Below the pieces are notes generated by a model. It ran no database searches, was not told the DNA's origin, and saw only the letters and a program-made list of their open reading frames with translations. This document shows positions 10,330 to 53,566 of a DNA stretch of 64,000 bases, piece after piece (positions within the stretch are counted from its first letter, which is position 1; each line of letters starts with the position of its first letter). The DNA is from Eledone cirrhosa (lineage: Eukaryota): NCBI GenBank assembly GCA_964016885.1, contig OZ024754.1:23808001-23872000 (forward strand). Direction: 5' to 3'. The position numbers and the translations under genes are program-made.

Positions 10330-12010
<1,681 letters not shown>

Positions 12011-12794
12011 GGGGTAGATAGAAAGACAGTTATACAGACAAGGACAGAGAGAGAGTGCTGTTTCTTAGGGTAATCCACCCACCCCATCATGTTTTCTATA
12101 AAACAATTACGCGTGTTGTTGTTTCTTTGATGCCGATAATACACATGTGTATCAAACAGTGATGATATGTCACTATAGAGAGGAAATGAATATTTACAAA
12201 GAAAAACTGAAATATAATTTTAAAAAATTTAACGAATATTTATTTTTTATCTTTTGGAGTCAGTCAACATTTACCGCCATGTTCTTTATTCTTTGTTAAC
12301 AATAAAAGAATCTAATTTATGACATACACCTCACTTCCGCGGGTAAACTTGATCGGACGAGCTCGAAGAAAACGGTTACGGGTGCTATCCGTTGCGGCTT
12401 GTGAATATTCCGTTTTCAAGACGGCTACGTACCGGCTTACCCTATGCGATGTCGGCTGTCTCCCTCTCGAACGATATGCCGACCTTTACTCGTCCGCCCC
12501 GCCTGCACGTTAACGCCCGTCTTCCGCCTCCGATGCGTGTTCCGCCGTTGATGCGTGCCGAGTCGGCCGCCACCGACCCGTGTGGCTGCTGGGGAATCCA
12601 GCCGACGACGACGCCCGAACGGCGAAGTGGTGTAGCTTCACCGACGACACGCCGCCTTCTATCTCTCTAGCCATTCAAGGCCCTGCATCGACAGCGGGAC
12701 TGAAGCCAACCCGCCGTCTAGGCGGTTCCGCAGCCGACCCGTGGCCGGCAGATCGCCCTCGGGGAATTAGCGACGATCGCGGAGGATGCAGCGC

Positions 12795-12845
12795 GGCCAG
12801 GGGGTCCTGTCTACTATATAGGGTAACCTCGGTCAGACGAGCTCA
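12795..12845 (+). promoter_or_regulatory. Putative RNA polymerase I gene promoter/initiation site (TATATAGGG at 12815-12823)
   Basis: ggccagggggtcctgtctacTATATAGGGtaa..ga..gagctc is a diverged paralogue of the spacer copies, but with its own upstream context and followed by a different ETS-like sequence; matches the TATATAGGG-type Pol I start motif of plants and arthropods. Confidence 0.6.
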
Positions 12846-13002
12846 GTGAACGGAAGGGTGCTAGCCGTTGCAGTTTTCGGTTTTCTGCGTAGGTTACGTG
12901 TTAGGCGTGCTCGGATACCCCATATGCGTCGTCGTCCTCGTCCGCGCCCCACCCGCACGTTACAGCCCGTACCCGCTGCCATCGACGAATTATTGCCTTT
13001 AA

Positions 13003-13515
13003 AGACCGCCGCCGCCGCCCGACTGGACCCACGAGAGAAGACGTTCGTTACCGCTGGAGCACCGCAAATTACTCCTCGGTTGACGCCAACAACGAACGCA
13101 TTCCCGCCCGGGCGACGTAAAATCTGTAGCCTTTTCGCCGAATGCCTCGCGCCGCCTTCTGCTCGGCTCTTTTTTTTTCCTTTGGTTTTCGTTCGCTCGA
13201 CGACTAGCCGCCTTTCGTGTTCCGCCTTTCGATTGCGCTTCCGTCGCGGCAAAAGAATTGCCTTTCCAGACCGCTGCCGACCCACCGGACCACGAGAGAA
13301 GACGTTCGTTACCGCTGAAGCACCGCAAATTACTCCTCGGTTGACGCCAAAAACAAGCGCCTTCCCACCCGGGCGGCGTAAAAGTCTGAAACCTTTTCGC
13401 CGAACGCCTCGCGCCGTCACCTCCTCCTCGCCTCTTTTTTTCTTTTCTTTAATTTTCGTTCGCTCGCCGACCCTCGGCCTCGACGACTAGCCGCCTTTCG
13501 TGTTCCGCCTTTCGA
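13003..13515 (+). repeat. Two-copy tandem repeat (~260-285 bp) inside the ETS-like segment
   Basis: cacgagagaagacgttcgttaccgctg..gcaccgcaaattactcctcggttgacgccaa at ~13030 and ~13291; cgacgactagccgcctttcgtgttccgcctttcga at 13198 and 13482. Confidence 0.9.
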
Positions 13516-13978
13516 ACGCCCTTCTGTCACAGCAGGAGATACGCGTCCGTCGTAATCGCCGTCGTTTTAACGCAGGAGCGCCGCCTAAATGCCCTGCTCC
13601 GCGCTTGACGACGATGTACGACGGCGACGACGTGCGCACTCTTCCTGCTGCGACGAAGGTTTCGGCTTTTCGTCGTGGACCCGGTCAGGCCATGCCGCTG
13701 ACCTCGCGTTGCGTCGCCACCGCCGCGGCGGGCTTGGGTTTAGCTGTAGCTACCCTCGTTTTGCCAACGGCGACGCGATATCGATGAAAGAGAGCGGCGT
13801 CGTCCCTCCCGAAGGGACACTGGCATCAAGTGTGCTTGCGCCGCCGTCGTCGTCGGTCGACGTCCAAGCTTTCCCCGGCATACCTACCCGTTAGGTTACG
13901 CGACGCCGCGCTTTTCGCTCTTGCGTTCGTCGTCGTCGTCGTCCGTTCGATTTGTCGAAAGAGATCGAGACGAAAAGG

Positions 13979-14082
13979 ATCGCTTGTATACGACTCGACT
14001 TGCCGCTCGGAGTGACGTGCTTAGTAGAGCAGCTACCACACTGCTATCTATTGAGTCTCTTCTCACGAACGATATGATCCGC
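13979..14082 (+). rRNA. 28S rRNA: 28S (LSU) rRNA 3'-terminal fragment (pseudogene)
   Basis: atcgcttgtatacgac...tcggagtgacgtgcttAGTAGAGCAGCTaccacaCTGCTATCTATTGAgtc aligns by eye with the conserved eukaryotic LSU 3' end (..gtagacgac..tcggggt..gtAGCAGAGCAGCT....CTGCGATCTATTGAaagtc). Boundaries are approximate. Confidence 0.8.
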
Positions 14083-14336
14083 CCCTCGAGGCGGCAGAAA
14101 AGGAAAAGAAAAGTCGAAAGATGGCGGCTGAAGTAATTGGAACGACCGAACGACCGACCGAACGAACGAACGAGAGATAGCAGCTACCGGGTTGGAACAC
14201 TGACACGGCTTTCTTTCGACGGGTTAGCGTAGCAACGACGACACACACGTACATACAACATACAACAAACAAGTCTGGTCCGTGCGGGCGTTAGACGCCG
14301 CCGCCGCCGATCGATCGGTTCGTTGTTTTACGAGTT

Positions 14337-14745
14337 CCGCCGCCGATCCGTTGTCCGTCTTCCATGTTAGTTTTACGTGCAGCTGTGCGTGTGACACTCT
14401 GTCGTCCGTCTTCCAAGTTAGTTTTACGTGTAGACGGCGTGTGTGTGTGTCTGTGTGTGTGTTACACGGCGCCGATCCGTCGTCCGTCTTCAAAGTTAGT
14501 TTTACCTGTAGACGGAGTGTGTGTGTGTCTGTGTGTGTTACACGCCGCCGATCCGTCGTCCGTCTTCCAAGTTAGTTATACGTGTAGACCGAGTGTGTGT
14601 GTGTCTGTGTGTGTTACACGCCGCCGATCCGTCGTCCGACTTCCTAGTTAGTTTTACGTGTAGACGGCGTGTGTGTGTGTCTGCGTGTGTTACACGCCGC
14701 CGATCCGTCGTCCGTCTTCCAAGTTAGCATTACGTGTAGACGGCG
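14337..14745 (+). repeat. IGS short subrepeats (76-bp period here, 66-bp period in the islands)
   Basis: acacgccgccgatccgtcgtccgtcttccaagttagttttacgtgtagacgg(tg)n at 14464, 14540, 14616 and 14692. Confidence 0.92.
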
Positions 14746-16321
14746 GGAAGGAATCCAACCCGCCGGCCAGGTGGTTCCGCCGCGGACCCGTACGTTTGCG
14801 AGTCGCTGCCGGGAAATGCAGACGGCATGGCGGCGTGTATACGCGAAACGACGCCTTCCGCCTTCCGCCTTCCACTCGGTAAATGTTCCTTTATTCGTTC
14901 ACGCCGCCCCGCTTCGAGCGCGAGAAAGAATACAATCCGCCGGCGAGGCGGTTCCGCCGCCGTCACGTAAGGTTGCGAGTAGGCGCCGGGGAAACCGACC
15001 GCTCACGGTTATATCTACTCGGACGGGGGATCCTGTCTATTATATAGGGTAAGCTTGATCGGACGAGCTCGAAGAAAACGGTTACGGGTACTATCCGTTG
15101 CGGCTTGTGAATATTCCGATTTTAAGACGGGTACGTGCCGGTTTACCCTATGCGATGTCGGCTGTCTCCGATATGGCGACCTGTACTCGTCCGCGCCGCC
15201 TGCACGTTAACGCCCGCCCTCCGCATCCCCCCCTTCTTACGCCTCTGATGCGTGTTCCGCCGTTGATGCGTGCCGAGTCGGCCGCCGCCGACCCATGTGG
15301 CTGCAGGGGAATCCAGCCGACGACGCCCTCCGAACGGCGGCGTGGTGTAGCTTCGTCGACGCGACGACAATACGCCGCCATCTAGCCTCCTTTGGGGAGG
15401 CCCCGTGTAGACGGTGGAAAGGAATCCAACCCGCCGCCTAGGCGGTTCTGCCGCCGACCCGTAAGATTGCGAGTCACTGCCAGGAAAGGCAGGCGGCAAG
15501 GCGGCGTGTATACGCGACAGGACGATTTCCGCCTTCCGCCTTCCGCCTTCCACCCGGTAAACATTCCTTTATTCGTCCACGCCTCCCCGCTTCGATCGCG
15601 AGAAAGAACGCAACCCGCCGGCGAGGCTGTTCCGCCGCCGACCCGTAAATTTCGAGTAGGCTCCGGGGAAACCGACCGCTCACGGTTGTATCTACTCGGC
15701 CAGGGGGTCTGTCTATTATATAGGGTCAGCTGGATCGGACGAGCTCGAAGAAAACGGTTACGGGTGCTATCCGTTGCGGCTTGTGAATATTCCGTTTTAA
15801 AGACGGGTACGTGCCGGCTTACCCTATGCGATGTCGGCTGTCTCCGTCTCGAACGATATGCCGACCTGTACTCGTCCGCGCCGCCTGCACGTTAATGCCC
15901 GTCCTCCGCCTTCGCCCCGTGTTCCGCCTCCGATGCGTGTTCCGCTGTTGATGCGTGCCGAGTCGGCCGCCGCCGACCCGTGTAACTGCAGGGAAATCCA
16001 GCCGCCGACGACGCCCGAACGGCGGCGTGGTGTAGCTTCGTCGACGCGACGACATCACACCGACATTTAGTCTCCTTCAGGGAGACCCCGTGTAGACGGC
16101 GGAAAGGAATCCAATCCGCCGCCTAGGCGGTTCCGCCGCAGGACCCGTACGTTTACGAGTCGCTGCCGGCAAAGGCAGACGGCAAGGCGGCGTGTATACG
16201 GGACACGACGCCTTCCGCCTTCCGCCTTCCACACGGTAAACGTTCCCTTATTCGACCACGCCTCCCCGCTTCGATCGCGAGAAAGAACGCAACCCACCGG
16301 CGAGGCGGTTCCGCCGCCGAC
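14740..16321 (+). repeat. IGS long subrepeats (~676 bp), each with a putative Pol I spacer promoter
   Basis: gtctatTATATAGGGt.agct.gatcggacgagctcgaagaaaacgg with TATATAGGG at 15041 and 15717; the downstream part also occurs at 12341. Confidence 0.85.
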
Positions 16322-19300
16322 CCTAACCCAAACCCTAACCCTGATCCTAACCATAACCCAAACCCTAACCCTAACTCTAAACCTAGCCCAAACCCAAACC
16401 CATGCCCTACCACTAACCCTAACCTTAACCCTAATGCTAACCCTTACACTAACCCTAAACCTAACCCTAACATTAACACTAACCCTAACCCAAACACAAA
16501 CCCAAAGCCTAACACTACCCAAAACCGAAACGCTAACCCTAACCCTAACCCTAATGCAAAAACTAACCCTAAGCCTAACTCAAATCTCAACACCAACCCT
16601 AACCCTACCCCTAACCCAACCCAAATCCTAACTCCAAACCTAACACTAACCGTAACCCTAAATTTAACCCCAACCCTAAACACTACGCTAACCCAAAACC
16701 CAACCCCAACCCCAACCCCAGACCTAATCCTAACCCTAAGCATAACACTAACACTAACACTAACCCTAACACTAACCGTAACCTTAACCCAAACCGTAAC
16801 CCTAACCCTAACTCTAACCCTAATCCAAACCCTAACCCTAACCCTAACCCTAACCCTAACCCTAACCCAAATCCAAACCCAAGCCCTAACACTAACCCTA
16901 ACCGAAACCCTAACACTAACCCTAACCCTAACCCTAACGCTAAGCCTAACCCTAATACTAACACAAACCTCAACTCCAACCCTAACCCTAACAATAACCC
17001 TAACCCAAACTCTAACCGAAACCCAAACCCTAACACTAACCCAAACCGAAATCCTAACCCTAACCGTAACGCAAACCCTAACCATAACCCTAACCTCAAC
17101 CTCACCACCAACCCTAACCCCAAATCTAACCACAACCCTAACCCAAACACTAACCCAAACCCTAACCCCAACCCTATCATTAACCCTAACCAAAACCCTA
17201 ACCTTAATCCTAATCTAACCCTAACACTAACCCTAATCCAAACCCTAACCCTAACACTAACCCTAACCCTAACCCTAACCCTAACCCAACACATAAGCCT
17301 AACCCTAACACAAACTCTAACCCTAACCCTAACCCCAAACCTAACCCCAAACCTAACACTAACCGTAACCCTAACCCTAACTCTAACCCCAACCCTAAAC
17401 CCTTCGCTAACCACAACCCCAACCCCAAACCGAAACCTAACCCTAAACGTAAGGCTAACCCTAACCATAACGCTAGCACTAACCTTAACTCTAACCCTAA
17501 CCCTAACCCAAACCATAACCCTAATCCTGACCTTAACCTTAACCCTAACCCAAACCCTAACCCTAACCCTAACTCTAACCCTAACCCTAATACTAAGGCT
17601 AACCCAAACCCAAACCCAAAACTTAACACTAACCCAAACCGAAACACTAATCCTAACCCTAACACTAACGCTAACCCTAACCATAACCCTAACCCAAACG
17701 TCAACACCAACCCTAACCCTAAGCCAAACCCTAACCCTAACACTAACCCTAACGCTAACCTAAATCATAACCCTAACACAAAACCTAAACCTAACCCTAA
17801 CACTAATCCTAATCCTAACCCTAACCCTAACATAAACACTAACCCTAAACATAACGCTAACCCTAACCCAAACACAAACCCAAAAATTAACACAAACCCT
17901 AATCCTAACCCTAACACTAACCCTATCCCTAACCCTAACCCCAAACCTAAACCTAAAACTAGCACTAACCCCAACACCAAACCCAACCCCACCTAACCCT
18001 AACCCTAACCCGAACCCTAACCCAAAACCTAACCCTAATCCTAACCCTAATCCTAACCCTAATCCTAACCCTAACCCTAACCGTAAACCTACCCTAACAC
18101 AAACACTGACACTAACCCTAACCCTAACCCTAACCCAAACCCAAAACCTAACCCTAACACTAACTCTAACCCTAACCCAAACTCTAACCCTATCCCTATG
18201 CCTAACCCCAACCCTAACTCCAAACCTAACACTAACCGTAACTCTAACCCTAACTCTAGCCCCAACCCTAAACCCTACGCTAACCCCAAACCCAACACCA
18301 ACCCCCATCCCAAACCTAATCCTAACCCTAAACCTAACACTAACCATAACACTAACACGAATCCTAACCCTAACCCTAACCCAACCCAAACCCTAACTTC
18401 AAACCTAACACTAACCATAACCCTAAACCTAACTCTAACACCAAAACTAAACCCTACGCTAACCCCAAACCCAACCCCAACCCCAACCCCAACCCAAAAC
18501 CTAACCCTAACCCTAACCCTAACACAAACACTAACCCTAACCCTAACTCTAACCCTAACCCAAAACCTAACCCTAAACTAACCCTAACCCTAACCCAAAC
18601 CCAAACCCAAACACTAACACTAACCCAAACCGAAACCCTAACTATAACCCTAACCCTAACCCTAACGCTAACCCTAACCCTAACACTAACATAAAACTCA
18701 ACATCAACCCTAACCCTAACACTAACCCTAACCCTAACCCAAACCTCAACACCAACCCTAACCCCAAAACTAACTCCAACCCTAACCCCAACACTAACCC
18801 TAACCCTAACCCCAACCCTAAGCCTAACCCTAACCAAAACCCTAACCATAACCCTGACCCTAATCCAAACCCTAACCTTAACACTAACCCTAACCCTAAC
18901 ACTAACCTGAACCCAACACATGAACCTAACCCTAACACTAACCCTAACGCAAATCCTAACCCTAACCCTAACCCTAACCCTACATCTAACCCCAACTCTA
19001 ACCCCAAACCTAACATTAACCGTAACCCTAACCCTAACTCTAACCCCAACCCTAAACTCTTCGTAACCACAACCCCAACCCCAACACGAAACCTAAACGT
19101 AAACGTAATCCTAATCCTAACCATAACACTAACAGTAACCTTAACTCTAACCCTAACCCTAACCCAAACCTTAACCCTAATTCTAACCCTAACCCTAAAG
19201 CTAACCCAAACCCAAACCAAATACCTAACACTAACCCAAACCGAAACAGTAACCCTAACACTAACGCTAACACTAACCAGAACCGTAACCCAAACCTCAA

Positions 19301-24691: not shown

Positions 24692-25536
24692 TTTTACGAA
24701 TTCCGACGCCACCGCTGCTACTGCAACCCACCAACCATTCCGCGCGCCAACTTTTACGACGAGTCCAGTCGCTCGATCGCTCGGCCAGTTTGCGAGGTTC
24801 CACCAACGACCCTCAAAGTCGCTTTCGATGAGCATCGAATGCGAGAGTTCGCGGTAAATGCAAAAGAGCCTTGGGATCCGTCTCCTTGTTCGAGAGGCGC
24901 GTGTGTCTTTCACGCCGCCGATCCATCGTCCGTCTTCTGAGTTAGTTTACGTGCGGCTGTGCGTGTGACACTCCGTCGTGTATCTTCCAAGTTAGTTTTG
25001 CGTGTCTCTATGTGTTGCACGCCGCCGCCGATCCGACGTCTGTCTTCCAAGTTAGTTTTACGTGCGGCTGTGCGTGTAACACTCTGTCATCCGTCTTCCT
25101 AGTTTTACGTGTAGACGACGTGTGTGTGTCTATGTGTGTTACACGCCGACAATCCGTCGTCCGTCTTCCAAGTTAGTTTTACATGTAGACGGCGTGTGTG
25201 TGTTACACGCCGCCGATCCGTCGTCCGTCTTCCAAGTTAGTTTTACGTGTAGACGGAGTCTGTGTGTGTTACACGCCGCCAATCCGTCGTCTGTCTTCCA
25301 AGTTAGTTTTACGTGTAGACGGCGGAAAAGAATCCAACCCGCCGCCTAAGCGGTTCCGCCGCAGACCCGTACGTTTACGAGTCGCTGCCGGGAAAGGCAG
25401 ACGGCAAGGCGGCGTGTATACGCGACAAGACGCCTTCCGCCTTCCATCCGGTAAACGTTCCCTTATTCGTCCACGCCTCCACGCATCGATCGCGAGAAAG
25501 AACGCAACCCGCCGGCGAGGTGATTCCGCCGCCGAC
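24692..25536 (+). repeat. IGS island 1: head, short subrepeats and partial long repeat; no promoter motif
   Basis: Starts ttttacgaattccg, ends ccgccgccgac; homologous to 14326-14960. Confidence 0.9.
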
Positions 25537-28500: not shown

Positions 28501-28566
28501 TAACCTCAACCCTAACCCCCACGCTAACCCCTACCCCAACCCCAAACCCAAACCTAACTCTAACCC
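25537..28566 (-). repeat. Degenerate telomeric array 2
   Basis: As array 1; its variant pattern recurs at ~48530-51470. Confidence 0.97.
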
Positions 28567-30065
28567 TTTTACGAGTTCCGACGCCACCGCTGCTACTGCA
28601 ACCCACCAACCAGTGGGCGCGCCAACTTTTACGACGAGTCCAGTCGCTCGATCGCTCGGCCAGTTTGCGAGGTTCCACCAATGACCCTCAAAGTCGCTTT
28701 CGATGAGCATCGAAAGCGAGAGTTCGCGGTAAATGCAATAGAGCCTTGGGATCCGTCTCCTGGCTCGAGAGGCGCGTGTGTCTTTCACGCCGCCGATCTA
28801 TCGTCCGTCTTCCGAGTTAGTTTACGTGCGGCTGTGCGTGTGACACTCCGTCGTGTATCTTCCAAGTTAGTTTTGCGTGTCTCTATGTGTTGCACGCCGC
28901 CGCCGATCCGACGTCTGTCTTCCAAGTTAGTTTTACGTGCGGCTGTGCGTGTAACACTCTGTCGTCCGTCTTCCTAGTTTTACGTGTAGACGACGTGTGT
29001 GTGTCTATGTGTGTTACACGCCGACAATCCGTCGTCCGTCTTCCAAGTTAGTTTTACATGTAGACGGCGTGTGTGTGTTACACGCCGCCGATCCGTCGTC
29101 CGTCTTCCAAGTTAGTTTTACGTGTAGACGGATTCTGTGTGTGTTACACGCCGCCAATCGGTCGTCTGTCTTCCAAGTTAGTTTTACGTGTAGCCGGCGG
29201 GAAGGAATACAATCCGTCGGCTAGGCGGTTCCGCCGCCGACCCGTACGCTTGGGAGTAGGCGCCGGGAAAGGCAGGTGGCAAGGTGGCGTGTATGCGCGA
29301 CACGACGCACTCCGCCTTCCACCCACTAAACGTTCCCTTATTCGTCCACCCCTCTCGCTTCGGTAGCGAGAAGGAACGCAATCCGCCGGCGAGGGGGTTC
29401 CGCCGCCGACCCGTAAAGTTGCGTGTAGGCAACGAGGAAACCGACCGCTCACGGTTATATCTCCTCGGTCAGGGGATCCTGTCTATTATATAGGGTAAGC
29501 TTGATCGGACGAGCTCGAAGAAAACGGTTACGGGTGCTATCCGTTGCGGCTTATGAATATTCCGTTTTCAAGACGGGTACGTGCCGGCTTACACTATGCG
29601 ATGTCGGCTGTCTCCGCCTCGAATGATATGCCGACCTGTACTCGTCCGCGCCGCCTGCACGTTAACGCCCGTGTTCCGCCTCCGATGCGTGTTCCGCTGT
29701 TGATGCGTCCCGAGTCGGCCGCCGCCGATCCGTGTGGCTGCAAGGGAATCCAGCCGACGACGACCCCCGAACGGCGGCGTGGTGAAGCTTCTTAGACGCG
29801 ACGACAACACGCCGATATTTAGCCTCCTTCGGGGAGACCTCGTGTAGACGGCGGAAAAGAATCCAACCCGCCGCCTAAGCGGTTCCGCCGCAGACCCGTA
29901 CGTTTACGAGTCGCTGCAGGGAAAGGCAGACGGCAAGGCGGCGTGTATACGCGAAAAGACGCCTTCCGCCTTCCATCCGGTAAACGTTCCCTTATTCGTC
30001 TATGCCTCCACGCTTCGATCGCGAGAAAGAACGCAACCCGCCGGCCAGGCGATTCCGCCGCCGAC
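28567..30065 (+). repeat. IGS island 2 with putative Pol I spacer promoter (TATATAGGG 29487-29495)
   Basis: Same ends as island 1 plus one extra long subrepeat. Confidence 0.9.
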
Positions 30066-33000
30066 TCTAACCCTATCCCTAACCCTATCCCTAACCCTAA
30101 CACAAACCCTAACCCTAACCCTAACCCTGACCCAAACCCAAACCCATACCCTAACACTAACCCAAAAGGAAACCTTAACCGCAAGCCTAACGTTAAACCT
30201 AACACTAACCCTAACACAAATTTCAATACCAACCCTAGCCCTAACCCTAACCCTAACCCTAACCCTAACCCGAACCCTAACCCTAAACTCAACTCTCACA
30301 TAACACTAACCCCAACCCTAACCCTAACCCTAATCCTAACCCTAACACTAACCCTAGCCCTAACCCTAACCCAAAACATAACCCTAACCCTAAAACTAAC
30401 CCTAACCCAAAACCTAACCCTAACCCTAACCCTAACCCCAACCCTAACCGCAAACCTAACACTAACGTAACCCTAACCCTAACACTAACCCAACCCTAAA
30501 CCCTTCGCTAAACACAACCCCAACCCCAACCCGAAACTTAACCCTAAACGTAATCCTAACCCTAACCATAACATTAACACTAACCTTAACTCTAACCCTA
30601 ATCCTAACCCAAACCCTAACCCTAATCCTAACCCTAACCCTAACCCTAACCCAAACCCTAACCCTAACCCTAACACTAACGCTAACCCTAAAGTTAAAGC
30701 AAACCCAAACCCAAAACCTAGCACTAACCCAAGCTGAAACACTAACCCTAACCCTAAAACTAACGCTAACCCTAAACATAACCCTAACCCAAACCTCAAC
30801 ACCAACCCTAACCCTAAACCCAACCCTAACCCAAACTCTAACCCTAACCCTAACCCAAACTCTAACCCTAACCCTAACCCTAACCCAAATCCAAACCCTA
30901 ACCCAAACCCTAAAGCTAAACCAAACCCTAACCCAAACCCTAAATCTAACCCTAACACTAAACCTAATCCTAACCCTAACCCTAACATAAACACTAACCC
31001 TAAACATAACCCTAACCCTAACCCAAAATCAAACTCAAACCCTAACACAAACCATAACCATAACCCTAACCCTAACCCTAACCCTAACCCTAACCCAAAT
31101 CCAAACCCTAACACTAGCCCGAACCGAAACACTAACCCTAACCCTAACCCTAATGCAAACAGTAACCCTAACCCAAACATCAACACGAATCCTAACCCTA
31201 ACCCTAACCCTAACCCTAACCCAAACCCCAACCCCAACACCACCTAACCCTAACCCTAATCCGAACCCTAACCCAAAGCCTGACCCTAACACAAACCCAA
31301 ACCCTAACCCTAACCCTAATCCTAACCCTAACCCTAACCGTAAACCTAACCCTAACCCAAAATCAAACTCAAACCCTAACACAAACCATAACCCTAACCC
31401 TAACCCGAACCCTAACCCTAAACTCAACTCTCACACAACACTAACCCCAACCCTAACCCTAACCCTAATCCTAACCCTAACACTAACCCTAGCCCTAACC
31501 CTAACCCAAAACATAACCCTAACCCTAAAACTAACCCTAACCCAAAACCTAACCCTAACCCTAACCCTAACCCCAACCCTAACCGCAAACCTAACACTAA
31601 CGTAACCCTAACCCTAACACTAACCCAACCCTAAACCCTTCGCTAAACACAACCCCAACCCCAACCCGAAACCTAACCCTAAACGTAATCCTAACCCTAA
31701 CCATAACATTAACACTAACCTTAACTCTAACCCTAATCCTAACCCAAACCCTAACCCTAATCCTAACCCTAACCCTAACCCTAACCAAACCCTAACCCTA
31801 ACACTAACGCTAACCCTAAAGTTAAAGCAAACCCAAACCCAAAACCTAGCACTAACCCAAGCTGAAACACTAACCCTAACCCTAAAACTAACGCTAACCC
31901 TAAACATAACCCTAACCCAAACCTCAACACCAACCCTAACCCTAAACCCAACCCTAACCCAAACTCTAACCCTAACCCTAACCCAAACTCTAACCCTAAC
32001 CCTAACCCTAACCCAAATCCAAACCCTAACCCAAACCCTAAAGCTAAACCAAACCGTAACCCAAACCCTAAATCTAACCCTAACACTAAACCTAATCCTA
32101 ACACTAACCCTAACATAAACACTAACCCTAAACATAACCCTAACCCTAACCCAAAATCAAACTCAAACCCTAACACAAACCATAACCATAACCCTAACCC
32201 TAACCCTAACCCTAACCCTAACCCAAATCCAAATCCAAACCCTAACACTAGCCCGAACCGAAACACTAACCCTAACCCTAACCCTAATGCAAACAGTAAC
32301 CCTAACCCAAACATCAACACGAATCCTAACCCTAACCCTAACCCTAACCCTAACCCAAACCCCAACCCCAACACCACCTAACCCTAACCCTAATCCGAAC
32401 CCTAACCCAAAGCCTAACCCTAACACAAACCCAAACCCTAACCCTAACCCTAATCCTAACCCTAACCCTAACCGTAAACCTAACCCTAACCCAAAATCAA
32501 ACTCAAACCCTAACACAAACCATAACCCTAACCCTAACCCTAACCCTAACCCTAACCCTAACCCAAATCCAAACCCAAACCCTAACACTAGCCCGAACCG
32601 AAACACTAACCCTAAACCTAACCCTAATGCAAACAGTAACCCTAACCCAGACATCAACACGAACCCTAACCCTAACGCTAACCCCAACCCCAACCCCAAC
32701 ACCACCTAACCCTAACCCTAATCCGAACCCTAACCCTAACTCTAACCCAAACGCAAACCCAAAACCTAACCCTAAACCTAACTCTAACCCTACACCAAAC
32801 TCTAAACCTATCCCTAACCCTAACCCCAACCCTAACTCCAAACCTAACACTAACCGTAACCCTAACTTTAACTCTAACCCCAACCCTAAACACTACGCTA
32901 ACCTCAAACCCAACTCCAACCTCAACCCCAAATCTAATCCTAACCCTAAACGTAACATTAACCATAATACTAACACTAACACAAACCCTAACACTAACCG

Positions 33001-33737: not shown

Positions 33738-35308
33738 TTTTACGAGTTCCGCCGCCACCGCTGCTACTGCTACCCACCAACCAGTCCGCGCGCCAACTTT
33801 TACGACGAGTTCAGTCGCTCGATCGCTCGGCCAGTTTGCGAGGTTCCACCAACGACCCGCAAAGTCGCTTTCGATGAACATCGAAAGCGAGAGTTCACGG
33901 TAAATGCAATAGAGCCTTGGGATCCGTCTCCTTGTTCGAGAGGCGAGGGTGTCTTTCACGCCGCCGATCCATCGTCCGTCTTCCGAGTTAGTTTACGTGC
34001 GGCTGTGCGTGTGACACTCCGTCGTTTATCTTCCAAGTTAGTTTTGCGTGTCTCTATGTGTTGCACGCCGCCGCCGATCCGTCGTCTGTCTTCCAAGTTA
34101 GTTTTACGTGCTGCTGTGCGTGTAACACTCTGTCGTCCGTCTTCCCAGTTTTACGTGTAGACGACGTGTGTGTGTCTATGTGTGTTAGACGCCGACAATC
34201 CGTCATCCGACTTCGAAGTTAGTTTTACATGTAGACGGTGTGTATGTGTTACACGCCGCCGATCCGTCGTCCGTCTTCCAAGTTAGTTTTACGTGTAGAC
34301 GGGGTCTGTGTGTGTTACACGCCGCCGATCCGTCGTCCGTCTTCCAAGTTAGTTTTACGTGTAGACGGGGTCTGTGTGTGTTACACGCCGCCGATCCGTC
34401 GTCCGTCTTCCAAGTTAGTTTTACGTGTAGCCGGCGGGAAGGAATACAATCCGCCGGATAGGCGGTTCCGCCTCCGACCCGTACGCTTGCGAGTAGGCGC
34501 CGGGAAAGGCAGGCGGCAAGGTGGCGAGTATGCGCGACACGACGCACTCCGCCTTCCGCCTTCCACCCAGTAAACGTTCCCTTATTCGTCCACGCCTCCC
34601 GCTTCGATAGCGAGAAAGAACGCAATCCGCCGGCGAGGGGGTTCCGCCGCCAACCCGTAAAGTTGCGTGTAGGCAACGAGGAAACCGACCGCTCACGGTT
34701 ATATCTCCTCGGTCAGGGGATCCTGTCTATTATATAGGGTAAGCTTGATCGGACGAGCTCGAAGAAAACGGTTACGGGTGCTATCCGTTGCGGCTCATGA
34801 ATATTCCGTTTACAAGACGGGTACGTGCCGGCTTACCCTATGCGATGTCGGCTGTCTCCGCCACGAATGATATGCCGAACTGTACTCGTCCGCGCCGCCT
34901 GCACGTTAACGCCGGTGTTCCGCCTCCGATGCGAGTTCCGCTGTTGATGCGTCCCGAGTCGGCCGCCGCCGACCCATGTGGCTGCAGGGGAATCCAGCCG
35001 ACGACGACCCCGAACGGCGGCGTGGTGAAGCTTCTTAGACGCGACGACAACACGCCGACATTTAGCCTCCTTCGGGGAGACCTCGTGTAGACGGCGGAAA
35101 GGAATCCAACCCGCCGCCTAGGTGGTTCCGCCGCAGACCCGTACGTTTGCGAGTCGCTGCCGGGAAAGGCAAACGGCAAGGCGGCGTGTATACGCGACAA
35201 GAGGCCTTCCGCCTTCCATCCGGTAAATGTTCCCTTATTCGTCCACGCCTCCACGCATCAATCGCGAGAAAGAACGCAACCCGCCGGCGAGGCGATTCCG
35301 CCGCCGAC
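33738..35308 (+). repeat. IGS island 3 with putative Pol I spacer promoter (TATATAGGG 34731-34739)
   Basis: Same ends; near-identical to island 4 at offset 8767. Confidence 0.9.
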
Positions 35309-41300: not shown

Positions 41301-42504
41301 CCCTAACACAAACAATAACCCTAACCCTAACCCTAACCCTAACCCTAACCCTAACCCAAATCCAAACCCAAACCCTAACACTAGCCCGAACCGAAACACT
41401 AACCCTAACCCTAACCCTAATGCAAACAGTAACCCTAACCCAAACATCAACACGAACCCTAACCCTAACGCTAACCCCAACCCCAACCCCAACACCACCT
41501 AACCCTAACCCTAATCCGAACCCTAACCCTAACTCTAACCCAAACGCAAACCCAAAACCTAACCCTAAACCTAACTCTAACCCTACACCAAACTCTAAAC
41601 CTATCCCTAACCCTAACCCAACCCTAACTCCAAACCTAACACCAACCGTAACCCTAACTTTAACTCTAACCCCAACCCTAAACACTACGCTAACCTCAAA
41701 CCCAACCCCAACCTCAACCCCAAACCTAAACGTAACATTAACCATAATACTAACACTAACACAAACCCTAACACTAACCGTAACCCTAACCCAAACCCTA
41801 ACCCTAACCCTAACCCTAACCCTAACCCAAATCCAAACCCAAACACTAACACAAACCCAAACCGGAACCCTAACAATAACCCTAACCCTAACCCTAACGC
41901 TAACCCTAATCCTAACCCTAACACAAACCACAACACCAACCCTAACCCTAACCGTAACCCTAACCCTAACACAAACCCTAAACCTAACCCTAACAATAAC
42001 CCTATACCTAACCCACACCCAAACCCAAACCCTATCCCTAACCGAAACCGAAACACTAAGCCTAACCCTAACCCTAACGCAAACCCTAACCCTAACCCTA
42101 ACCCAAACCTCAACACCAACCCTAACCCTAACCCTAACCATAACCCTAACCCTAACCGAAACCCTAAACCTAACCCTGACCCTAACCCAACCCTAACCCA
42201 AATTTAACCCCAACCCTAACCCCAACGCTAAGCCTAACACTAACCCTAACCCTAACCCTAACCCAAACCCTAACCATAACACAAACCCAAACACTAACCC
42301 TAACCCTAATCCTAACTCTAAACCAAACTCTAAACCAAACCCTAACCCTAACCCTAACCCTAACCCAAATCCTAACCCTAACCCTAACCCTAATCCAAAC
42401 CCCAAACCTAACACTAACTGTAACCCTAACCCTAATTATAACCCCAACCCTAACCCCCACGCTAACCCCAACCCCAACCCCAACCCCAAACCTAACTCTA
42501 TCCC
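35309..42504 (-). repeat. Degenerate telomeric array 4
   Basis: Contains a ~839-bp tandem duplication (35412 vs 36251). Confidence 0.97.
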
Positions 42505-44075
42505 TTTTACGAGTTCCGCCGCCACCGCTGCTACTGCTACCCACCAACCAGTCCGCGCGCCAACTTTTACGACGAGTTCAGTCGCTCGATCGCTCGGCCA
42601 GTTTGCGAGGTTCCACCAACGACCCGCAAAGTCGCTTTCGATGAGCATCGAAAGCGAGAGTTCACGGTAAATGCAATAGAGCCTTGGGATCCGTCTCCTT
42701 GTTCGAGAGGTGCGGGTGTCTTTCACGCTGCCGATCCATCGTTCGTCTTCCGAGTTAGTTTACGTGCGGCTGTGCGTGTGACACTCCGTCGTTTATCTTC
42801 CAAGTTAGTTTTGCGTGTCTCTATGTGTTGCACGCCGCCGCCGATCCGTCGTCTGTCTTCCAAGTTAGTTTTACGTGCTGCTGTGCGTGTAACACTCTGT
42901 CGTCCGTCTTCCTAGTTTTACGTGTAGACGACGTGTGTGTGTCTATGTGTGTTAGACGCCGACAATCCGTCATCCGACTTCCAAGTTAGTTTTACATGTA
43001 GACGGCGTGTGTGTGTTACACGCCGCCGATCCGTCGTCCGTCTTCCAAGTTAGTTTTACGTGTAGACGGGGTCTGTGTGTGTTACACGCCGCCGATCCGT
43101 CGTCCGTCTTCCAAGTTAGTTTTACGTGTAGACGGGGTCTGTGTGTGTTACACGCCGCCGATCCGTCGTCCGTCTTCCAAGTTAGTTTTACGTGTAGCCG
43201 GCGGGAAGGAATACAATCCGCCGGATAGGCGGTTCCGCCTCCGACCCGTACGCTTGCGAGTAGGCGCCGGGAAAGGCAGGCGGCAAGGTGGCGAGTATGC
43301 GCGACACGACGCACTCCGCCTTCCGCCTTCCACCCAGTAAACGTTCCCTTATTCGTCCACGCCTCCCGCTTCGATAGCGAGAAAGAACGCAATCCGCCGG
43401 CGAGGGGGTTCCGCCGCCGACCCGTAAAGTTGCGTGTAGGCAACGAGGAAACCGACCGCTCACGGTTATATCTCCTCGGTCAGGGGATCCTGTCTATTAT
43501 ATAGGGTAAGCTTGATCGGACGAGCTCGAAGAAAACGGTTACGGGTGCTATCCGTTGCGGCTCATGAATATTCCGTTTACAAGACGGGTACGTGCCGGCT
43601 TACCCTATGCGATGTCGGCTGTCTCCGCCACGAATGATATGCCGAACTGTACTCGTCCGCGCCGCCTGCACGGTAACGCCCGTGTTCCGCCTCCGATGCG
43701 AGTTCCGCTGTTGATGCGTCCCGAGTCGGCCGCCGCCGACCCATGTGGTTGCAGGGGAATCCAGCCGACGACGACCCCGAACGGCGGCGTGGTGAAGCTT
43801 CTTAGACGCGACGACAACACGCCGACATTTAGCCTCCTTCGGGGAGACCTCGTGTAGACGGCGGAAAGGAATCCAACCCGCCGCCTAGGTGGTTCCGCCG
43901 CAGACCCGTATGTTTGCGAGTCGCTGCCGGGAAAGGCAAACGGCAAGGCGGCGTGTATACGCGACAAGACGCCTTCCGCCTTCCATCCGGTAAATGTTCC
44001 CTTATTCGTCCACGCCTCCACGCATCGATCGCGAGAAAGAACGCAACCCGCCGGCGAGGCGATTCCGCCGCCGAC
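42505..44075 (+). repeat. IGS island 4 with putative Pol I spacer promoter (TATATAGGG 43498-43506)
   Basis: Near-identical to island 3. Confidence 0.9.
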
Positions 44076-47000
44076 TCTAACCCTAACCCTAACCCTAACC
44101 CTAACCCTAACCCTAACCCTAACCCATACCCTAACACTAACCCAAACCGAAACCCTAACCGCAAGCCTAACGTTAAACCTAACCTTTACCCTAACACGAA
44201 TTTCAACACCAACCCTAGCCCTAACCCTAACCCAAACTCCAACCCTAAACCTAACCATAACCCGAACCCAACCGTAACACTAACACTAACCATAACCCTA
44301 ACCCAAACCCTAACCCAAACCCTGAACCTAACAATAACACTAAACCTAATCCTATCCCTTACCCTAACATAAACACAAACCCTAAACATAAACCTAACCC
44401 TAACCCAAACACAAACCCAAACCCTAACACAAACTCTAACCCTAACCCTAACACTAACCCTATCCGTAACCATAATCCAAACCCTGACCCTCACCCTAAC
44501 TCTGACCCAAACCCAAAATAATACCCTAACACTAACCCAAACCGAAACCCTAACCGTAAGCCTAACGTTAAACCTAACCCTAACCCTAACACAAATTTCA
44601 ACACCAACCCTAACCCTAACCCAAACTCTAACCCTAAACCGAACCATAACCCAAACCCAAACCGTAACACTAACACTAACCCTAACCCTAACCCAAACCC
44701 TAACCCAAACACAAAACCAAACCCTAACACAAACCCTAACCATAACACTAACCCAAACCCTAACACTAACCCAAACCGAAACCCTAACCCTAACACTACC
44801 GCGAACCCTAACCCTAACCCTAACCCAAACCTCAACACCAACCCTAACGCCAAACCTAAACCCAAACCTAACCCCAACCCTAAACCTAACCCTAACACTA
44901 ACACTAATCCAAACCCCAAACCTAACACTAACCGTAACCCTAACCCTAACTCCAACCCCAATTCTAACCCCTACGCTAACCCCAACCCCAACCCGAAACC
45001 TAACCCTAACACTAAACCTAACCCTAACCCTAACCCTAACATTAACACTCACCCTAACTCTAACCCTAATCCTAACCCAAACCCTAACCCTAACCATAAC
45101 CCTAACCCTAACCCAAACCCTAACCTAACCCCAAACCTAACCGTAACCATAACCCTAACCACAACCCTAAACCTAACCATAACCCTAACCCTAACCCTAA
45201 CCCTAACACCTACGCTAACCCCAACCCCAACCCCAACCCCAACCCCAAACCTAACCCTAGCACTAAACCTAATCCTAACCCTAACCCTAACATTAACACT
45301 CACCCTAACTCTAACCATAACCCTAACCACAACCCTAAACCTAACCCTAACACTAACCCTGAGCCTAAGCCTAATCCAAACCCTAACACTAACCCTAACC
45401 CTAAGCCTAAACATAACCCAAAACATAACCCTAACCCTAACACTAAATCTAACACAAAGCCTAACCCTAACCCTAACGCTAACACCAACCCTAACCCCAA
45501 AGCTAACACTAACCGTAACCCTAACCCTAAACTAACCCTAACCCTAACCCTAACATTAACACTCACCCTAACTCTAACCCTAATCCTAACCATAACCCTC
45601 ACCCTAATCCAAACACTAACCCAAACCTAACTGTAACCATAACCCTAACCACAACCCTAAACCTAACCCTAACCCCAACCCTAACCCTAACCCTAAACCC
45701 AAATCTCACCCGAAAACTAACCCCAACACAGGCCCCAACCCTAACCCCAACCCTAACCCCAACCCTAGACAACCCTAACCCTAACCCTAACCAAAACCCT
45801 AACCCTAACCCTAACCCTAACCCTAATCCAAACCCTAACCTTAACCCTAACCCTAACCCTAACCCTAACCCTAACCCAAAACATAACCCTAACCCTAACA
45901 CTAACCCTAACCCAAAGCCTAACCCTAACCCTAACCCTAACACCAACCCTTACCCCAAACCTAACACTAACAGTAACCCTAACTTTAAACCTAACCCAAA
46001 CCCTAACCCTGATTCTAACCCTAACCCTATCCCAAACACAAACCCTAACCTTAACCCTAACACTAACCCTATCCCTAACACAAACCCAAATCCAAACCCT
46101 AACACTAGCCCAAACCGAAAGCCTAACCCTAACCATAACACTAACGCAAACACTGACCGTAACCCTAACCGAAACCTCAACACCAGCACTAACCCTAACC
46201 CTAACCCAACCCAAAACCTAACCCTAACACTGACCCTAACCCAAACCCTAACCAAAATCTAACCCTAACCCTAATCCTAATCCTATCCCTAAATCCCAAA
46301 GCTCACCCCAACCCTAACCCCAAACATAACCCTAACCCTAACACTAACCCCAACCCCAACCCCGACCCTACCTAACCCTAACGTAACACTAACCCAAACC
46401 CAAACCCTAACCCTAACCCTAACCCTAACCCTGACCCTAACACTAACCCTAACCCTAACCCTAATCCTAATCCTAACCCAAACCCTAAGCCAAACGTTAA
46501 ACCTATCCCTAACTCTAACCCCAAGCCTAACTCCAAACCTAACACTATCCGTAACACTAACACTAACTCTAACCCCAACCCTAACCCCTACGCTAACCCC
46601 AAACCCAACACCAACCCCAACCCCAAACCTAACCGTAAACCTAACCCAAACCCAAACCCAAACCCTAACACTAATCCAAACCGAAACCCTAAACCTAACC
46701 CTAACCCTAAACCTAACGCTAACCCTAAACCTAACCCAAACCCTAACCCTAACCCTGACCCTAACCCAAACCCTAACCAAAATCTAACCCTAACACAAAC
46801 CCTAGACTTAATCCTAAACCTAACCCCAAATCTAACCCCAACCCTAACCCTAACCCTAGCACTAACCCCAACCCCAACAACGACCCCACCTAACCGTAAC
46901 CCTAACCCTAACCCTAACCCTAATCCTAACCCTAACCCAAACCCTAAGCCAAACATTAAACCTAACTCTAACGCTAACCCAAAACCTAACCCTAACTCTA

Positions 47001-50000: not shown

Positions 50001-53000
50001 CTAACCCTAACCCAAACCCTAACCCTAACTTTAACCCTAACCCTTGCTTTAAACCAAACCCTAACCCAAAACCTAACACTAACACTAACCCAAACCCTAA
50101 TCCTAACCCTAACCCTAACATAAACACTAACCCTAACCCTAGCCCTAACCCTAACCCTAACCCTAACACTAAACCTATCCCTAACCCTAACCCAAACCCT
50201 AACCCTAAACCTATCCCTAACACAAACCCAAACCCCATTACTAACCCTAAACCTAACCCTAACCCTCACCCAAACCCTAACCCTAACACAAACCGAAACC
50301 CTAACCCTAAGCCTAAACCTAATCCTAACACTAATTCTAACCGTAAACCTAAACCTAACACAAACCCTAACCCTAACCCTAACCCTAACCCTAATCCAAA
50401 CCCCAAACCTAACACTGACCGTAATTCTACCCCAACCCCAACCCCAACACTAACTCTAACCTTAACACTAACAGTAACCCCAACCACAAACCCAACCCCA
50501 ACCCCAATCCTAACCCTAACCCTAACCCTAACCCTAACCCTAACACTAACACTAACCCTATCTCTAACCCTAAACCTAACCATAACACTAAACCTAACCC
50601 TAACCCTAATCCTAACACTAACCCTAACCCTAACCCTAACCCTAATCCTAACCGTAAACCTAAACCTAACCCTAACCCTAACCCTAGCCCTAAACCTAGC
50701 CCTAACACTAATCCTAACACTAAACCAAAGCCAAACCCAAACCAAAACACTAATCCTAAACCTAACCCGAAACCAAACCCTAACCCTAACCTAACCCCAA
50801 ACCTAACCTTAACCATAACTCTAACCACAACACTAACCCCAACACTAACCCCAACACTAACCCCAACCCTAACCCCACCCTAATCTAACACTAATCCTTA
50901 CCCTAACACTAATCCTAACCCTAACCCTAACCCTAACCCTAACCCTAACCCTATCCCTAAATCTAACCCTAACCCTAAACCTAAACATAACCCTAACCCT
51001 AACCCGAACCCTAACCCTAAACCTAAGCCTAACCATATCCCAAACACAAACCCTAACCGTAAACCGAACCCTAACCCTAAAAGTAACCCTAACACTAACC
51101 CAAGCCCTAACACAAACCATAACCCTAAACCTAACACTAGCCCTAACACTAAGCCAAACCCAAACCCAAACACTAATCCTAACCCTAAACCTAACCCAAA
51201 ATCAAACCCTAACCCTAAATCTAACCCTAACCCTAACCCAAACCCAAACCATAACCCTAACACTAACCCTAATCTAACCCTAACCCTAATCCAAAACCTA
51301 ACCCTAAACCTAACACTAGCCCTAACCCTAACCCTAACCCAAAACATAACCCTAAACCTAACCTTAACTCTAACCCTAACCGAAACCCTAACCCAAACCC
51401 GAACCACAACCCAAACACTAACTCTAACGCTAACCCAAAACCTAACCCTAACCCTAACCCTAACCCAAAACCTAACCCCAACCATAACCTTTACGCTAAC
51501 ACCAAACCCAACCCCAACCTCAAACCTAACCCTAACCCTAAACCTACCCCTAACCCTAACACTAACACTAAAACTAACCCTAACTCTAATCCTATCCCTA
51601 GCCCTAACCCTAAACCTAACCCTAACCCAAACACTAACCTAACCTAAAACCTAACAATAACAATAACCCGAACCACAAAACTAACCCTCAACCTAACCCC
51701 AACCCTAACCCTAACTCTAAACCCAACTCTAACCCCAACACTAACCCCAACCCTAACTCCAACCCTAACACCAACACTAACACTAACGCTAACCAAAACC
51801 CTAAGCCTAACCCTAACCCTAATCCTAACCCTAACCCTAACTCAAACCGAAACCCTAATCCTAACCCTAACCCGAACGCAAACCCTAGCACTAACCATAA
51901 CCCAAACCTCAACACCAACCCAAAACCTAACCCTAAACCTAACCCTAACTCTAACCCTAACCCAAACCCTAACCCAAACCCTAACACTAACACTAATCCT
52001 AACCCTAATCCTAACCCTAACCCTAACATAAACACTAACCCGAAACATAACCCTAACCCTAACCCAAACACAAACCCAAACCCTAACACAAACCCTAACC
52101 CTAACTCTAAACCTAACCCTAACACTAACACTAACCCTATCCCTAGCCCTAATCCAAACTATAACCCTAACTCTATCCCTAACACAAACCCAAACCCCAT
52201 TCCTAACCCTAAACCTAACCCTAACCCTCACCCAAACCCTAACCCTAACACAAACAAAAACCCTAACCATAAGCCTAACCCTAATCCTAACCCTAATTCT
52301 AACCGTAAACCTAACCCTAACACAAACCCTAACCCTAACCCTATCTCAAACCCTAACCCTAACACTAACCCTAACCCTAAACGTAACCCTAATCCAAACC
52401 CTAAACATAACCCTAACACTAACCCTAACCCTAACCCTAAACTTAACACTAACCCTAAACCAAAACCTAACCCGAACCCTTCCCCCAAAACCTAACCCTA
52501 ATCCTAACCTAAACCTAACCCCAAATCTAACCCCAAACCTATCCCTAACCCTAACTCTAACCCCAACCCTAAACCCTACGCTAACCGCAACACCCACACC
52601 AACCCCAAACCTAGCCCCAAACCTAACCCTAACACTAACCCTAACCCAAACCCTAACCCTAACCCTAACCCTAACTTTAACCCTAACCCTTGCCCTAAAC
52701 CAAACCCTAACCCAAACCCTAACACTAGCACTAACCCAAACCCTAATCCTAACCCTAACCCTAACATAAACACTAACGCTAACCCTAACGCTAAACCTAA
52801 CACTAACCCTAACACTAACCCTATTCCTAACCCTAACCCAAACCCTAACCCTAAACCTATCCCTAACACAAACCCAAACCCCATTCCTAACCCTAAACCT
52901 AACCCTATGCCTCACCCAAACCGTAACCCTAACACAAACCCAAACCCTAACCCTAAGCCTAACCCTAATCCTAACCCTAACCCTAAGCCTAACCTAATCC

Positions 53001-53566
53001 AAACCCCAAACCTAACGCTAAGCGTAACTCTAACTCCCACCCCAACACCAAACCCAACCCCAACCCCAAACCTAACCCTAACCCTAAACCTACCCCTAAC
53101 CCTAACACTAACACTAAAACTAACCCTAACTCTAATCCTATCCCTAAACCTAACCCTAACCCTAAACCTAACCCTAACCCAAACCCTAACCTAACCTAAA
53201 ACCTAACAATAACAATAACCCGAACCACAAAACTAACCCTCAACCTAACCCCAACCCTAACCCTAACTCTAAACCCAACTCTAACCCCAACACTAACCCC
53301 AACCCTAACCCCAACCCTAACCCCTACCCTAACACTAACGCTAACCCAAACCCTAAACCTAACCCTAACCCTAATCCTAACCCTAACCCTAACTCAAACC
53401 GAAACCCTAATCCTAACCCTAACCCGAACGCAAACCCTAACACTAACCATAACCCAAACCGCAACACCAACTCAAAACCTAACCCTAAACCTAACCCTAA
53501 CTCTAACCCTAACCCAAACCCTAACCCAAACCCTAACACTAACACTAACCCTAACCCTAATCCTAA
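44076..53566 (-). repeat. Degenerate telomeric array 5
   Basis: As above; ends abruptly at ...ccctaatcCTAA. Confidence 0.97.

Follow-up and report, generated by a model that had tools for sequence, protein, structure and literature searches.

Does a stretch of DNA in which rDNA-like islands alternate with telomeric repeats hold working Pol I units without rRNA genes, or is it what remains of a decayed rDNA unit? This question is raised by a window of 64,000 bp (the whole stretch analysed) on C14 of Eledone cirrhosa. The initial annotation took the islands for Pol I units whose payload is telomeric repeat, or for a pseudo-NOR, and had already allowed inertness as an alternative. From the comparisons below we consider it probable that the block consists of decayed, rRNA-deleted rDNA of an old type together with degenerate interstitial telomere repeats (ITSs), which was likely copied four times by tandem duplication and is likely inert.

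Layout of the locus and assembly support

The block is located at 23.8 Mb of C14 (46.3 Mb), about 51% along the chromosome. The GC-rich module that had been counted five times between CCCTAA arrays was found again as five CpG-rich islands, interleaved with five degenerate CCCTAA-rich arrays (Table 1). The islands together contain about 9.5 kb of intergenic spacer (IGS) and the arrays about 32 kb of interstitial CCCTAA-array DNA. The left edge of island 1 (12341) abuts sequence from within a dispersed repeat of high copy number, and one of six flanking ORFs was given a Pfam name. Concerning the idea that the block was inserted as a unit, the continuation of this dispersed repeat was not found in 80 kb downstream.

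Table 1. Features of the block, in window positions.
Feature	Position	Strand	Remarks
Truncated spacer repeat, then gene-promoter upstream region	12341..12814	+	begins at GGG of the promoter motif; left edge of relic
TATATAGGG of gene-promoter homolog	12815..12823	+	in intact units the last motif before the ETS
5' ETS homolog	12824..13944	+	stops ~625 bp before 18S start; 11-15% substitutions vs C12
ETS/28S deletion junction	13926..13944	+	on (GTC)n microhomology
28S rRNA pseudogene fragment, final 157 nt	13926..14082	+	152/157 vs intact LSU ends on C4 and C12
3' ETS, then 76-bp subrepeats (4.5 copies)	14083..14745	+	~220-bp deletion near 14338
Old-type spacer-promoter repeat (~680 bp), 2.3 copies	14733..16321	+	TATATAGGG at 15041 and 15717; ends GCCGAC/CCTAACCC
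Island 1, whole extent	12341-16321		
Array 1, degenerate CCCTAA	16322..24691	+	perfect hexamers 34%, per-base divergence 15%
Island 2: 3' ETS, 76-bp repeats, partial spacer repeat	24692..25536	+	promoter-bearing ~660 bp deleted
Array 2, degenerate CCCTAA	25537..28566	+	
Island 3	28567..30065	+	TATATAGGG at 29487; left junction bridged by short-read contigs
Array 3, degenerate CCCTAA	30066..33737	+	
Island 4	33738..35308	+	TATATAGGG at 34731
Array 4, degenerate CCCTAA	35309..42504	+	shares long segments with arrays 3 and 5 at 99% identity
Island 5	42505..44075	+	TATATAGGG at 43498; 16/1573 differences vs island 4
Array 5, degenerate CCCTAA	44076..53566	+	
Telomere-like satellite, 26-32-bp units	53567..64000	+	G-rich on +; runs on to ~C14:23916350

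That the alternation of islands and arrays is an assembly artefact is extremely improbable. Islands 4 and 5 do sit in an 8.8-kb duplication with 99% identity, and the read check covered three runs of one sample (possibly the assembled one) at the left junction only, the right junction (30055-30130) being passed over as repeat. But the islands are 1-12% apart, copy-specific variants recur in short-read contigs, and among the records shown the array-to-island junction at 28567 is bridged in two of the three runs (X2 record 9 with 0 differences, X3 record 17 with 7). The region 43190-44100 is present in all three runs, and no RNA data set was listed as containing it; the runs come from one sample and study with kind unrecorded, and this presence is uninformative on expression.

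The islands as spacer of an old rDNA type

The first copy of the module had been placed directly downstream of a 28S rRNA 3' end, and alignment to an Rfam-called unit of the same genome confirmed it: the fragment matches the last 157 nt of the called LSU (Table 1). At the gathering score Rfam itself called no rRNA anywhere in the window, and at E<=1 it called none in 7500-16500. The module common to the islands begins at about 14326, which is 244 bp past the 28S end. Homology to intact units spans all of island 1, and the spacer repeats of the islands show about 75-80% BLAST identity with the spacers on C4, C12, C25 and C2. By this homology the five islands are rDNA intergenic spacer, as had been proposed. 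Island 1 keeps the order promoter, ETS, deletion, 28S end, 3' ETS and spacer promoters, and about 11 kb is missing; judged from this order it is a whole rDNA relic minus 18S, 5.8S and most of 28S.

The divergence is 3% for the 28S fragment (5/157, with a wide interval) and about 8% for the spacer. In a tree of 23 promoter repeats, 15 old-type relics were separated from 8 repeats of full-length units with support 100/100. On these comparisons the spacer in the window is an older type, and the alignments show that island 1 is an rRNA-deleted unit which is diverged from today's homogenised spacer. Two other ideas on its origin were considered. Telomeric repeats are not a normal part of the IGS in the C4, C12, C25 and C2 units examined, which contain no CCCTAA arrays. 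The start of the relic at the GGG of the motif might suggest an RNA-mediated origin; the dispersed units on C4, C25 and C2 start upstream of the first motif.

Arrays, junctions and the probable spread of the block

The arrays were 15% diverged from CCCTAA, compared with 0-0.3% at two true telomeres, and perfect hexamers made up 34-40% of them versus 99-100% at the true telomeres. Tracts of CCCTAA/TTAGGG were present at 10 of 40 sampled contig ends, and by sequence the arrays form a large block of the species' telomere repeat at an interstitial position. The adjoining satellite was considered as a normal subtelomere, and this was rejected for the three subtelomeres checked (C10, C19, right C14 end), which carry neither satellite nor IGS.

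The right junction has the same breakpoint in all five islands, and the left junction has the same breakpoint and common array variants in the four internal islands (islands 2-5). Just past the right junction a variant motif is common to arrays 1, 3, 4 and 5, with an extra copy within array 4. The shared descent of the right junction is based on the identical breakpoint and this one variant motif; when the initial 200 bp of array 1 were locally aligned with 613 array windows, the flanks of the other junctions did not stand out. The 23-mer at the island-1 junction occurs once in the genome with 1 mismatch allowed. Because islands 1-5 share the right junction and islands 2-5 the left one, the spacing of 578-605 bp between motif and array was inherited and does not count as four independent cases. 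The reported positions and distances of the motif were correct (from TATATAGGG at 15717, 29487, 34731 and 43498 to the first base past the GCCGAC junction it is 605, 579, 578 and 578 bp), but their constancy has no meaning beyond descent from one copied junction. Two further copies at 12815 and 15041 were absent from the earlier list.

The island-plus-array duplicates have 95-100% identity. Island 1 differs from islands 3-5 by 11-12%, more than twice the 3% of the 28S fragment, so the first duplication must go back almost as far as the relic itself. Each internal island starts in the 3' ETS, and the resulting layout of promoter, array and 3' ETS mimics a bounded transcription unit. The pattern of the left junction would be explained by a tandem duplication that broke within the 3' ETS and within the array; unequal exchange could have produced the observed copies at about 4.4%, 2-3% and 1% distance, and exchange between subrepeats could have removed the promoter repeat which is lost from island 2. 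The right junction in the window probably came from deletion or recombination between the array and ACCCGTAA, a telomere-like word of the IGS. At this junction it is the G-rich strand that leads into the spacer, and this polarity argues that the repeats were not added by telomerase.

Three further sites with such blocks were found, at C7:29.300, C14:23.176 and C13:26.72 Mb, and they have one common IGS/satellite/CCCTAA junction, where the paralogous blocks carry 1-3 satellite units on the C-rich strand. We infer that the four sites on three chromosomes are related by shared descent. Variant-order 24-mers common to the four rDNA-linked arrays amounted to roughly 2.5-6 times the number under a crude shuffle null, while the window arrays shared 24-mers with the C8 and C1 arrays at 0.7-1.4 times the null in that direction; in the reverse direction the C8 and C1 arrays exceeded their own null 1.5-7 times, which means that the shuffle null is crude. 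Among 10 other loci (9 old-type spacer matches and 1 satellite match), a downstream array was seen at C7:29.3 and C13:26.7 only. The ancestral block would have arisen a single time, with the 3' end of rDNA, IGS, a small number of satellite units and a CCCTAA array in which mutations had already accumulated; copies of it would then have reached four or more interstitial sites, distributed over three chromosomes. In all four rDNA-array borders examined the promoters point toward the C-rich strand, presumably because this polarity was inherited from the ancestral block.

The block might instead be the direct scar of a chromosome fusion at this place, between an rDNA-bearing end and a telomere. 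In agreement with this, it lies in the middle of C14, the linked satellite is found near mid-chromosome on C2, C8 and C13 as well, and the IGS-to-CCCTAA polarity is the one expected if a broken rDNA end had been joined to the tip of a telomere. But the arrays appear older than the relic (15% versus 3-8%), all five are C-rich on the + strand with no head-to-head TTAGGG/CCCTAA in the window, the identical junction occurs on three chromosomes, and the true subtelomeres mentioned above have no satellite and IGS. So we regard a scar of fusion here as rather improbable, though a fusion may have made the ancestral block at another place.

Promoter motifs and known systems

In intact units of the same genome, TATATAGGG occurs in each spacer repeat of about 710 bp and about 2 kb before the 18S, and a core of about -31..+11 is common to gene and spacer copies. 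The motif in the window was matched with the duplicated Pol I gene and spacer promoters expected from these units, and it faces the C-rich strand as had been described; by homology the window copies are putative Pol I promoters. An extended box around the motif is kept in 50/50 promoters of the C12 and 9/9 of the C25 tandem arrays (fetched stretches), in 16/19 C4 motifs and in 3/6 C2 motifs, compared with 0/5 array-facing motifs in the window, where 12815 is the only motif with the box. The array-facing motifs had 18/154 differences in -31..-1 and 92/1156 downstream, counts which are not independent because islands 3-5 share a stem. The motif with +1..+60 is near the old-type yardstick (8/255 differences). 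TATATAGGG is unchanged in all six window copies spanning it, and it is little altered in other relics too (5/180 sites); A/T sites are less variable (1.3% versus 7.3%). The motif is missing from island 2 and from all three internal islands of C13. Root-to-tip lengths of the window promoters (about 0.04-0.065) resemble those of two relics without downstream array (0.043 and 0.051), and so the branch lengths look neutral.

One point favours function. Between -79 and +65 relative to the motif, a span of 143 bp, islands 3, 4 and 5 are identical. Within 60 bp on both sides 0 differences were observed and 5.3 expected (P=0.005), and the probability of so long an invariant run anywhere is 0.04; for -31..+20 (P=0.14) and for -150..+50 (P=0.09) the deficit of differences did not reach significance.

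With the same origin, the spacer promoters might still be leaky, which we consider unlikely. Pol I would then start at TATATAGGG and transcribe spacer for about 580 nt, followed by 3-9 kb of array, until it stops in the 3' ETS of the next island, and the product would be a C-rich, ARIA-like RNA as an unselected by-product. The near-intact motif region, the right polarity and the invariant run are consistent with this, and ITS-derived ARIA is known in CHO cells (PMC13403905). Against it, the extended box is absent from every array-facing promoter, the tandem arrays now carry another type of spacer, and about half or more of CHO ARIA is described as polyadenylated (PMC13403905), which would be unlike Pol I products. 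A step further is that fossil promoters fire Pol I into the arrays as natural rRNA-less Pol I units, each with promoter, CCCUAA repeat and the 3' ETS of the next island, and that their C-rich RNA influences how stable the ITSs are or how they are tethered to the nucleolus, the 143-bp run being a trace of selection; this seems quite doubtful to us.

Very unlikely is a selected element, in which Pol I-made C-rich RNA, or occupancy by UBF and Pol I, would stabilise ITS heterochromatin or tether it to the nucleolus. The shared polarity and the invariant run could be read in this way, ARIA depletion bares ssDNA at ITSs in CHO cells (PMC13403905), and a nucleolar role of ITSs has been speculated (PMC6410037). 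However, the four borders are of common descent, promoters are lost from internal islands in the window and on C13, no internal islands were found in the C7 (at least 81 kb fetched, one border), C8 (40 kb) and C1 (20 kb) array samples, the branch lengths are neutral-looking, and 9.5 kb of IGS is well under the pseudo-NOR scale. The claim of maintained rRNA-less Pol I units is thus not upheld: the spacing comes from duplication, the box is lost, the motif is gone from several islands, and the decay is as in array-less relics. The pseudo-NOR proposal is not supported by size, against the megabase arrays described in PMC4973289. Because the promoter-like motifs are mutated, the block is likely an inert heterochromatic relic, whose promoters would be decaying with no selected role.

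The locus can be compared with several known systems. Pseudo-NORs, described in PMC4973289 as megabase synthetic arrays of UBF sites without promoters, are also spacer-derived, rRNA-less DNA outside a NOR, but the window has about 9.5 kb of IGS. The C-rich ITS transcript called ARIA in CHO cells is what the window promoters would make, although the CHO transcript is a detected and largely polyadenylated one (PMC13403905). We found no case of such a Pol I-driven source of C-rich telomeric RNA in open-access literature text; if the promoters are active, the block would be a natural one, and its copy-specific variants allow direct testing. Duplicated gene and spacer promoters with TATATAGGG, called putative in the sources, are described in Cucurbita (PMC6589552) and Bacillus stick insects (PMC2590618). 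As there, intact units have one motif per spacer repeat and one before the ETS, with conserved flanks; unlike there, the window copies are of an older, mutated type, and in Eledone cirrhosa too the start site is putative. The block in this way preserves an extinct type of spacer and promoter.

Telomere-capped rDNA arrays are described in Chlamydomonas (PMC8287924, where Arabidopsis NOR2/NOR4 are cited). Spacer is joined to telomeric repeats there also, once via a telomere-like spacer word, but the window does not match a capped rDNA end, as it is interstitial, degenerate and repeated, with repeats far from perfect. Human dispersed rDNA near centromeres (PMC5381670) is likewise displaced with its IGS, out of concerted evolution and decaying, while the relic in the window is attached to degenerate telomeric arrays and was probably amplified along with them. 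There is also a resemblance to heterochromatic ITSs that are co-located or interspersed with rDNA/NORs in eels, salmonids and wood lemming (reviewed in PMC6410037): large telomere-like blocks lie by satellite, are mixed with rDNA and grow by unequal exchange. Different from the systems in that review, the rDNA here is a dead spacer fragment and not a working NOR, and the window is resolved at base level. It gives a base-level history of an interspersion that was mostly seen by FISH so far, in which one compound block would have reached three chromosomes and then expanded locally.

Islands and their junctions

The window (C14:23808001-23872000) lies at about 51% of the length of a 46.3-Mb chromosome (C14) in a genome of 3.0 Gb. 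CCCTAA/TTAGGG tracts were found at 10 of 40 contig ends sampled, so the telomere repeat is TTAGGG. The alternation reported by the initial annotation is present, with five CpG-rich islands interleaved with five C-rich arrays. Its four positions of TATATAGGG, the putative Pol I start motif, and the motif-to-array distances of 578-605 bp are also correct, and the window has two further copies.

All five islands stop at one and the same point of the spacer, at its own array-like word GCCGACCCGTAA, and islands 2-5 have a common 3' ETS start preceded by the same array variants. Island-plus-array segments are duplicated at 95-100%. Because of these common breakpoints and duplications, the four near-equal distances from promoter to array count as a single event. 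Substitutions number 16/1573 between islands 4 and 5, 64-67/1499 between island 3 and these two, and 21/843 between islands 2 and 3, while island 1 differs from islands 3-5 by 11-12%; island 2 has lost the promoter-bearing repeat.

Rfam gave no rRNA match in the window. The proposed 28S 3' end in island 1 was confirmed, as the last 157 nt of 28S align at 13926-14082 (152/157). A query of 13560-14340 against the genome matched in two parts, separated at many loci by about 11 kb, and on C4 Rfam called 18S (gene length 2872 nt), 5.8S and 28S between them. An 18S gene of this length would point to a cephalopod. By the order of its parts, island 1 is a whole rDNA relic, with 220 bp of the 3' ETS missing between two CGCCGCC words.

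The first bases of the relic are the GGG of the promoter motif (12340/12341). There it adjoins internal sequence of a high-copy repeat, further copies of which lie some 30-55 kb in from many chromosome ends. By eye this repeat is Helitron-like; Pfam gave no confirmation for 9571-9975.

Coordinates of features in the window and at related loci
Feature	Position	Remarks
Islands 1-5	12341-16321, 24692-25536, 28567-30065, 33738-35308, 42505-44075
TATATAGGG	12815, 15041, 15717, 29487, 34731, 43498
Truncated spacer repeat	from 12341	first part of island 1
Gene-promoter homolog	12815	island 1, after truncated spacer repeat
5' ETS	to 13944	island 1
Deletion on (GTC)n microhomology		island 1, after 5' ETS; 18S, 5.8S and most of 28S gone
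28S end, then 3' ETS, 76-bp subrepeats, 2.3 spacer-promoter repeats, array		island 1, in this order after the deletion
Helitron helicase-like fragment	1314-1598 (-)	PF14214, E=1.9e-17
26-32-bp telomere-like satellite	53567-64000	forms interstitial blocks
Blocks of this satellite	C2:209.88, C8:30.88-31.09, C13:26.36-26.45, C14:23.19-23.92, C18:13.07-13.25, C28:135.35 Mb
Degenerate telomeric array	C13:26646001-26726943	at least 78 kb after old-type spacer; three promoter-less islands inside
28S relic and old-type spacer	C7:29292140-29382000	followed by CCCTAA array of at least 81 kb; no internal islands in it
Second rDNA relic	C14:23162776-23185200	650 kb upstream of window; CCCTAA flanks both sides; left 230-bp tract adjoins inverted spacer piece, polarity as in telomerase addition; TTAGGG tract abuts C-rich satellite
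Large degenerate ITS blocks	C1:208.6-218.0, C8:23.66-23.73 Mb	perfect units 59-60%
Single full-length rDNA units	C4:352063558-352162000	inside ~40-kb segmental triplication; their 18S at 99.3-99.4% to that of the tandem units on C12 and C25

Putative promoters and their probable decay

In the intact tandem units of C12 and C25 the spacer contains 8-24 copies of a repeat of about 710 bp. Every copy carries TATATAGGG, and the final motif is about 2.15 kb upstream of 18S, a position which suggests that Pol I starts there. No telomeric arrays were found in these spacers. More dispersed rDNA units occur on C2 and others. Gene and spacer promoter copies have about -31..+11 in common and differ in the flanks; excerpts on the putative duplicated Pol I promoters of Cucurbita (PMC6589552) and stick insects (PMC2590618) describe the same pattern.

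In a tree of 23 promoter repeats picked from a larger set, 15 old-type relic copies split from 8 full-length-unit copies at 100/100. An extended box accompanied the motif in 50/50 cases on C12, 9/9 on C25, 16/19 on C4 and 3/6 on C2, in 0/9 at C14:23.17 Mb and in 1/6 in the window (12815, facing the ETS). Root-to-tip lengths of the window copies (~0.04-0.065) are like those of relics having no downstream array (0.051 at C7:65.8 Mb, 0.043 at C1:229.7 Mb). By sequence, then, the window promoters are of an old, mutated type.

Related blocks and age of the arrays

At three further sites, C7:29.300, C14:23.176 and C13:26.72 Mb (the last on the minus strand), old-type spacer likewise leads into a C-rich array, with the polarity seen in the window. 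These three have one junction in common: spacer, a short satellite-derived stretch (up to about 3 units) and CCCTAA. Variant order in their arrays matched that of the window arrays about 3-6 times as often as in a crude shuffle null; when the window arrays were compared with those of C8 and C1, the match was close to this null in one direction, but 1.9-3.2 times as high in reverse. The block probably recurs by descent, and its common polarity is one inherited event. The window junction is either a deletion derivative of the common junction or a separate formation on a related array. On C13 the three internal spacer islands (324-379 bp) carry no motif (0/3); therefore the alternation arises without promoters. 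No rDNA was seen in the 20 kb of C1 and 40 kb of C8 ITS sampled.

The window arrays diverge by 15% from CCCTAA (perfect units 34-40%), and two true telomeres by 0-0.3%; the 28S fragment differs by 3% and the spacer by about 8% from their own yardstick sequences. The arrays appear older than the rDNA relic, but repeat arrays may mutate faster. Array variants in 16322-53566 are strongly biased on the C-rich strand (C>A, T>A, T>C), and the two A positions of the unit are almost unchanged. Several blocks of the 26-32-bp satellite are near 50-56% of chromosome length, and it is a candidate centromeric or pericentromeric satellite.

Origin of the block and known systems

We consider the block most likely inert, the relic of an old rDNA end that would have joined a degenerate telomeric satellite. 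The rDNA-telomeric block would have dispersed among interstitial blocks and then expanded through tandem duplication with unequal exchange. A fusion scar at exactly this site, compatible with inertness, is improbable. An assembly artefact is hardly credible: short-read contigs with copy-specific variants span the left junction of island 3 (one sample; right junction masked).

Leaky Pol I read-through from the putative spacer promoters is rather unlikely; five of the six motifs do face the arrays, and these five lack the extended box. Against the inert reading, islands 3-5 have zero differences over -79 to +65 around the motif (within +-60, 0 observed and 5.3 expected, P=0.005; longest invariant run anywhere, P=0.04); three other windows tried were non-significant (P=0.06-0.14). 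This is in effect one comparison, which chance, conversion or selection could explain, and we regard a selected role as very improbable.

No precedent for a tandem unit of spacer promoter plus ITS was found in the open-access literature searched. ITS blocks that share a site with rDNA or are interspersed with it have already been described, and a nucleolar role for them was speculated (PMC6410037), displaced, decaying rDNA units lie near human centromeres (PMC5381670), and in Chlamydomonas spacer-telomere junctions form via a telomere-like word (PMC8287924). Pseudo-NORs are synthetic megabase arrays (PMC4973289), and the ITS-derived ARIA, C-rich telomeric transcripts of CHO cells, are largely polyadenylated (PMC13403905).
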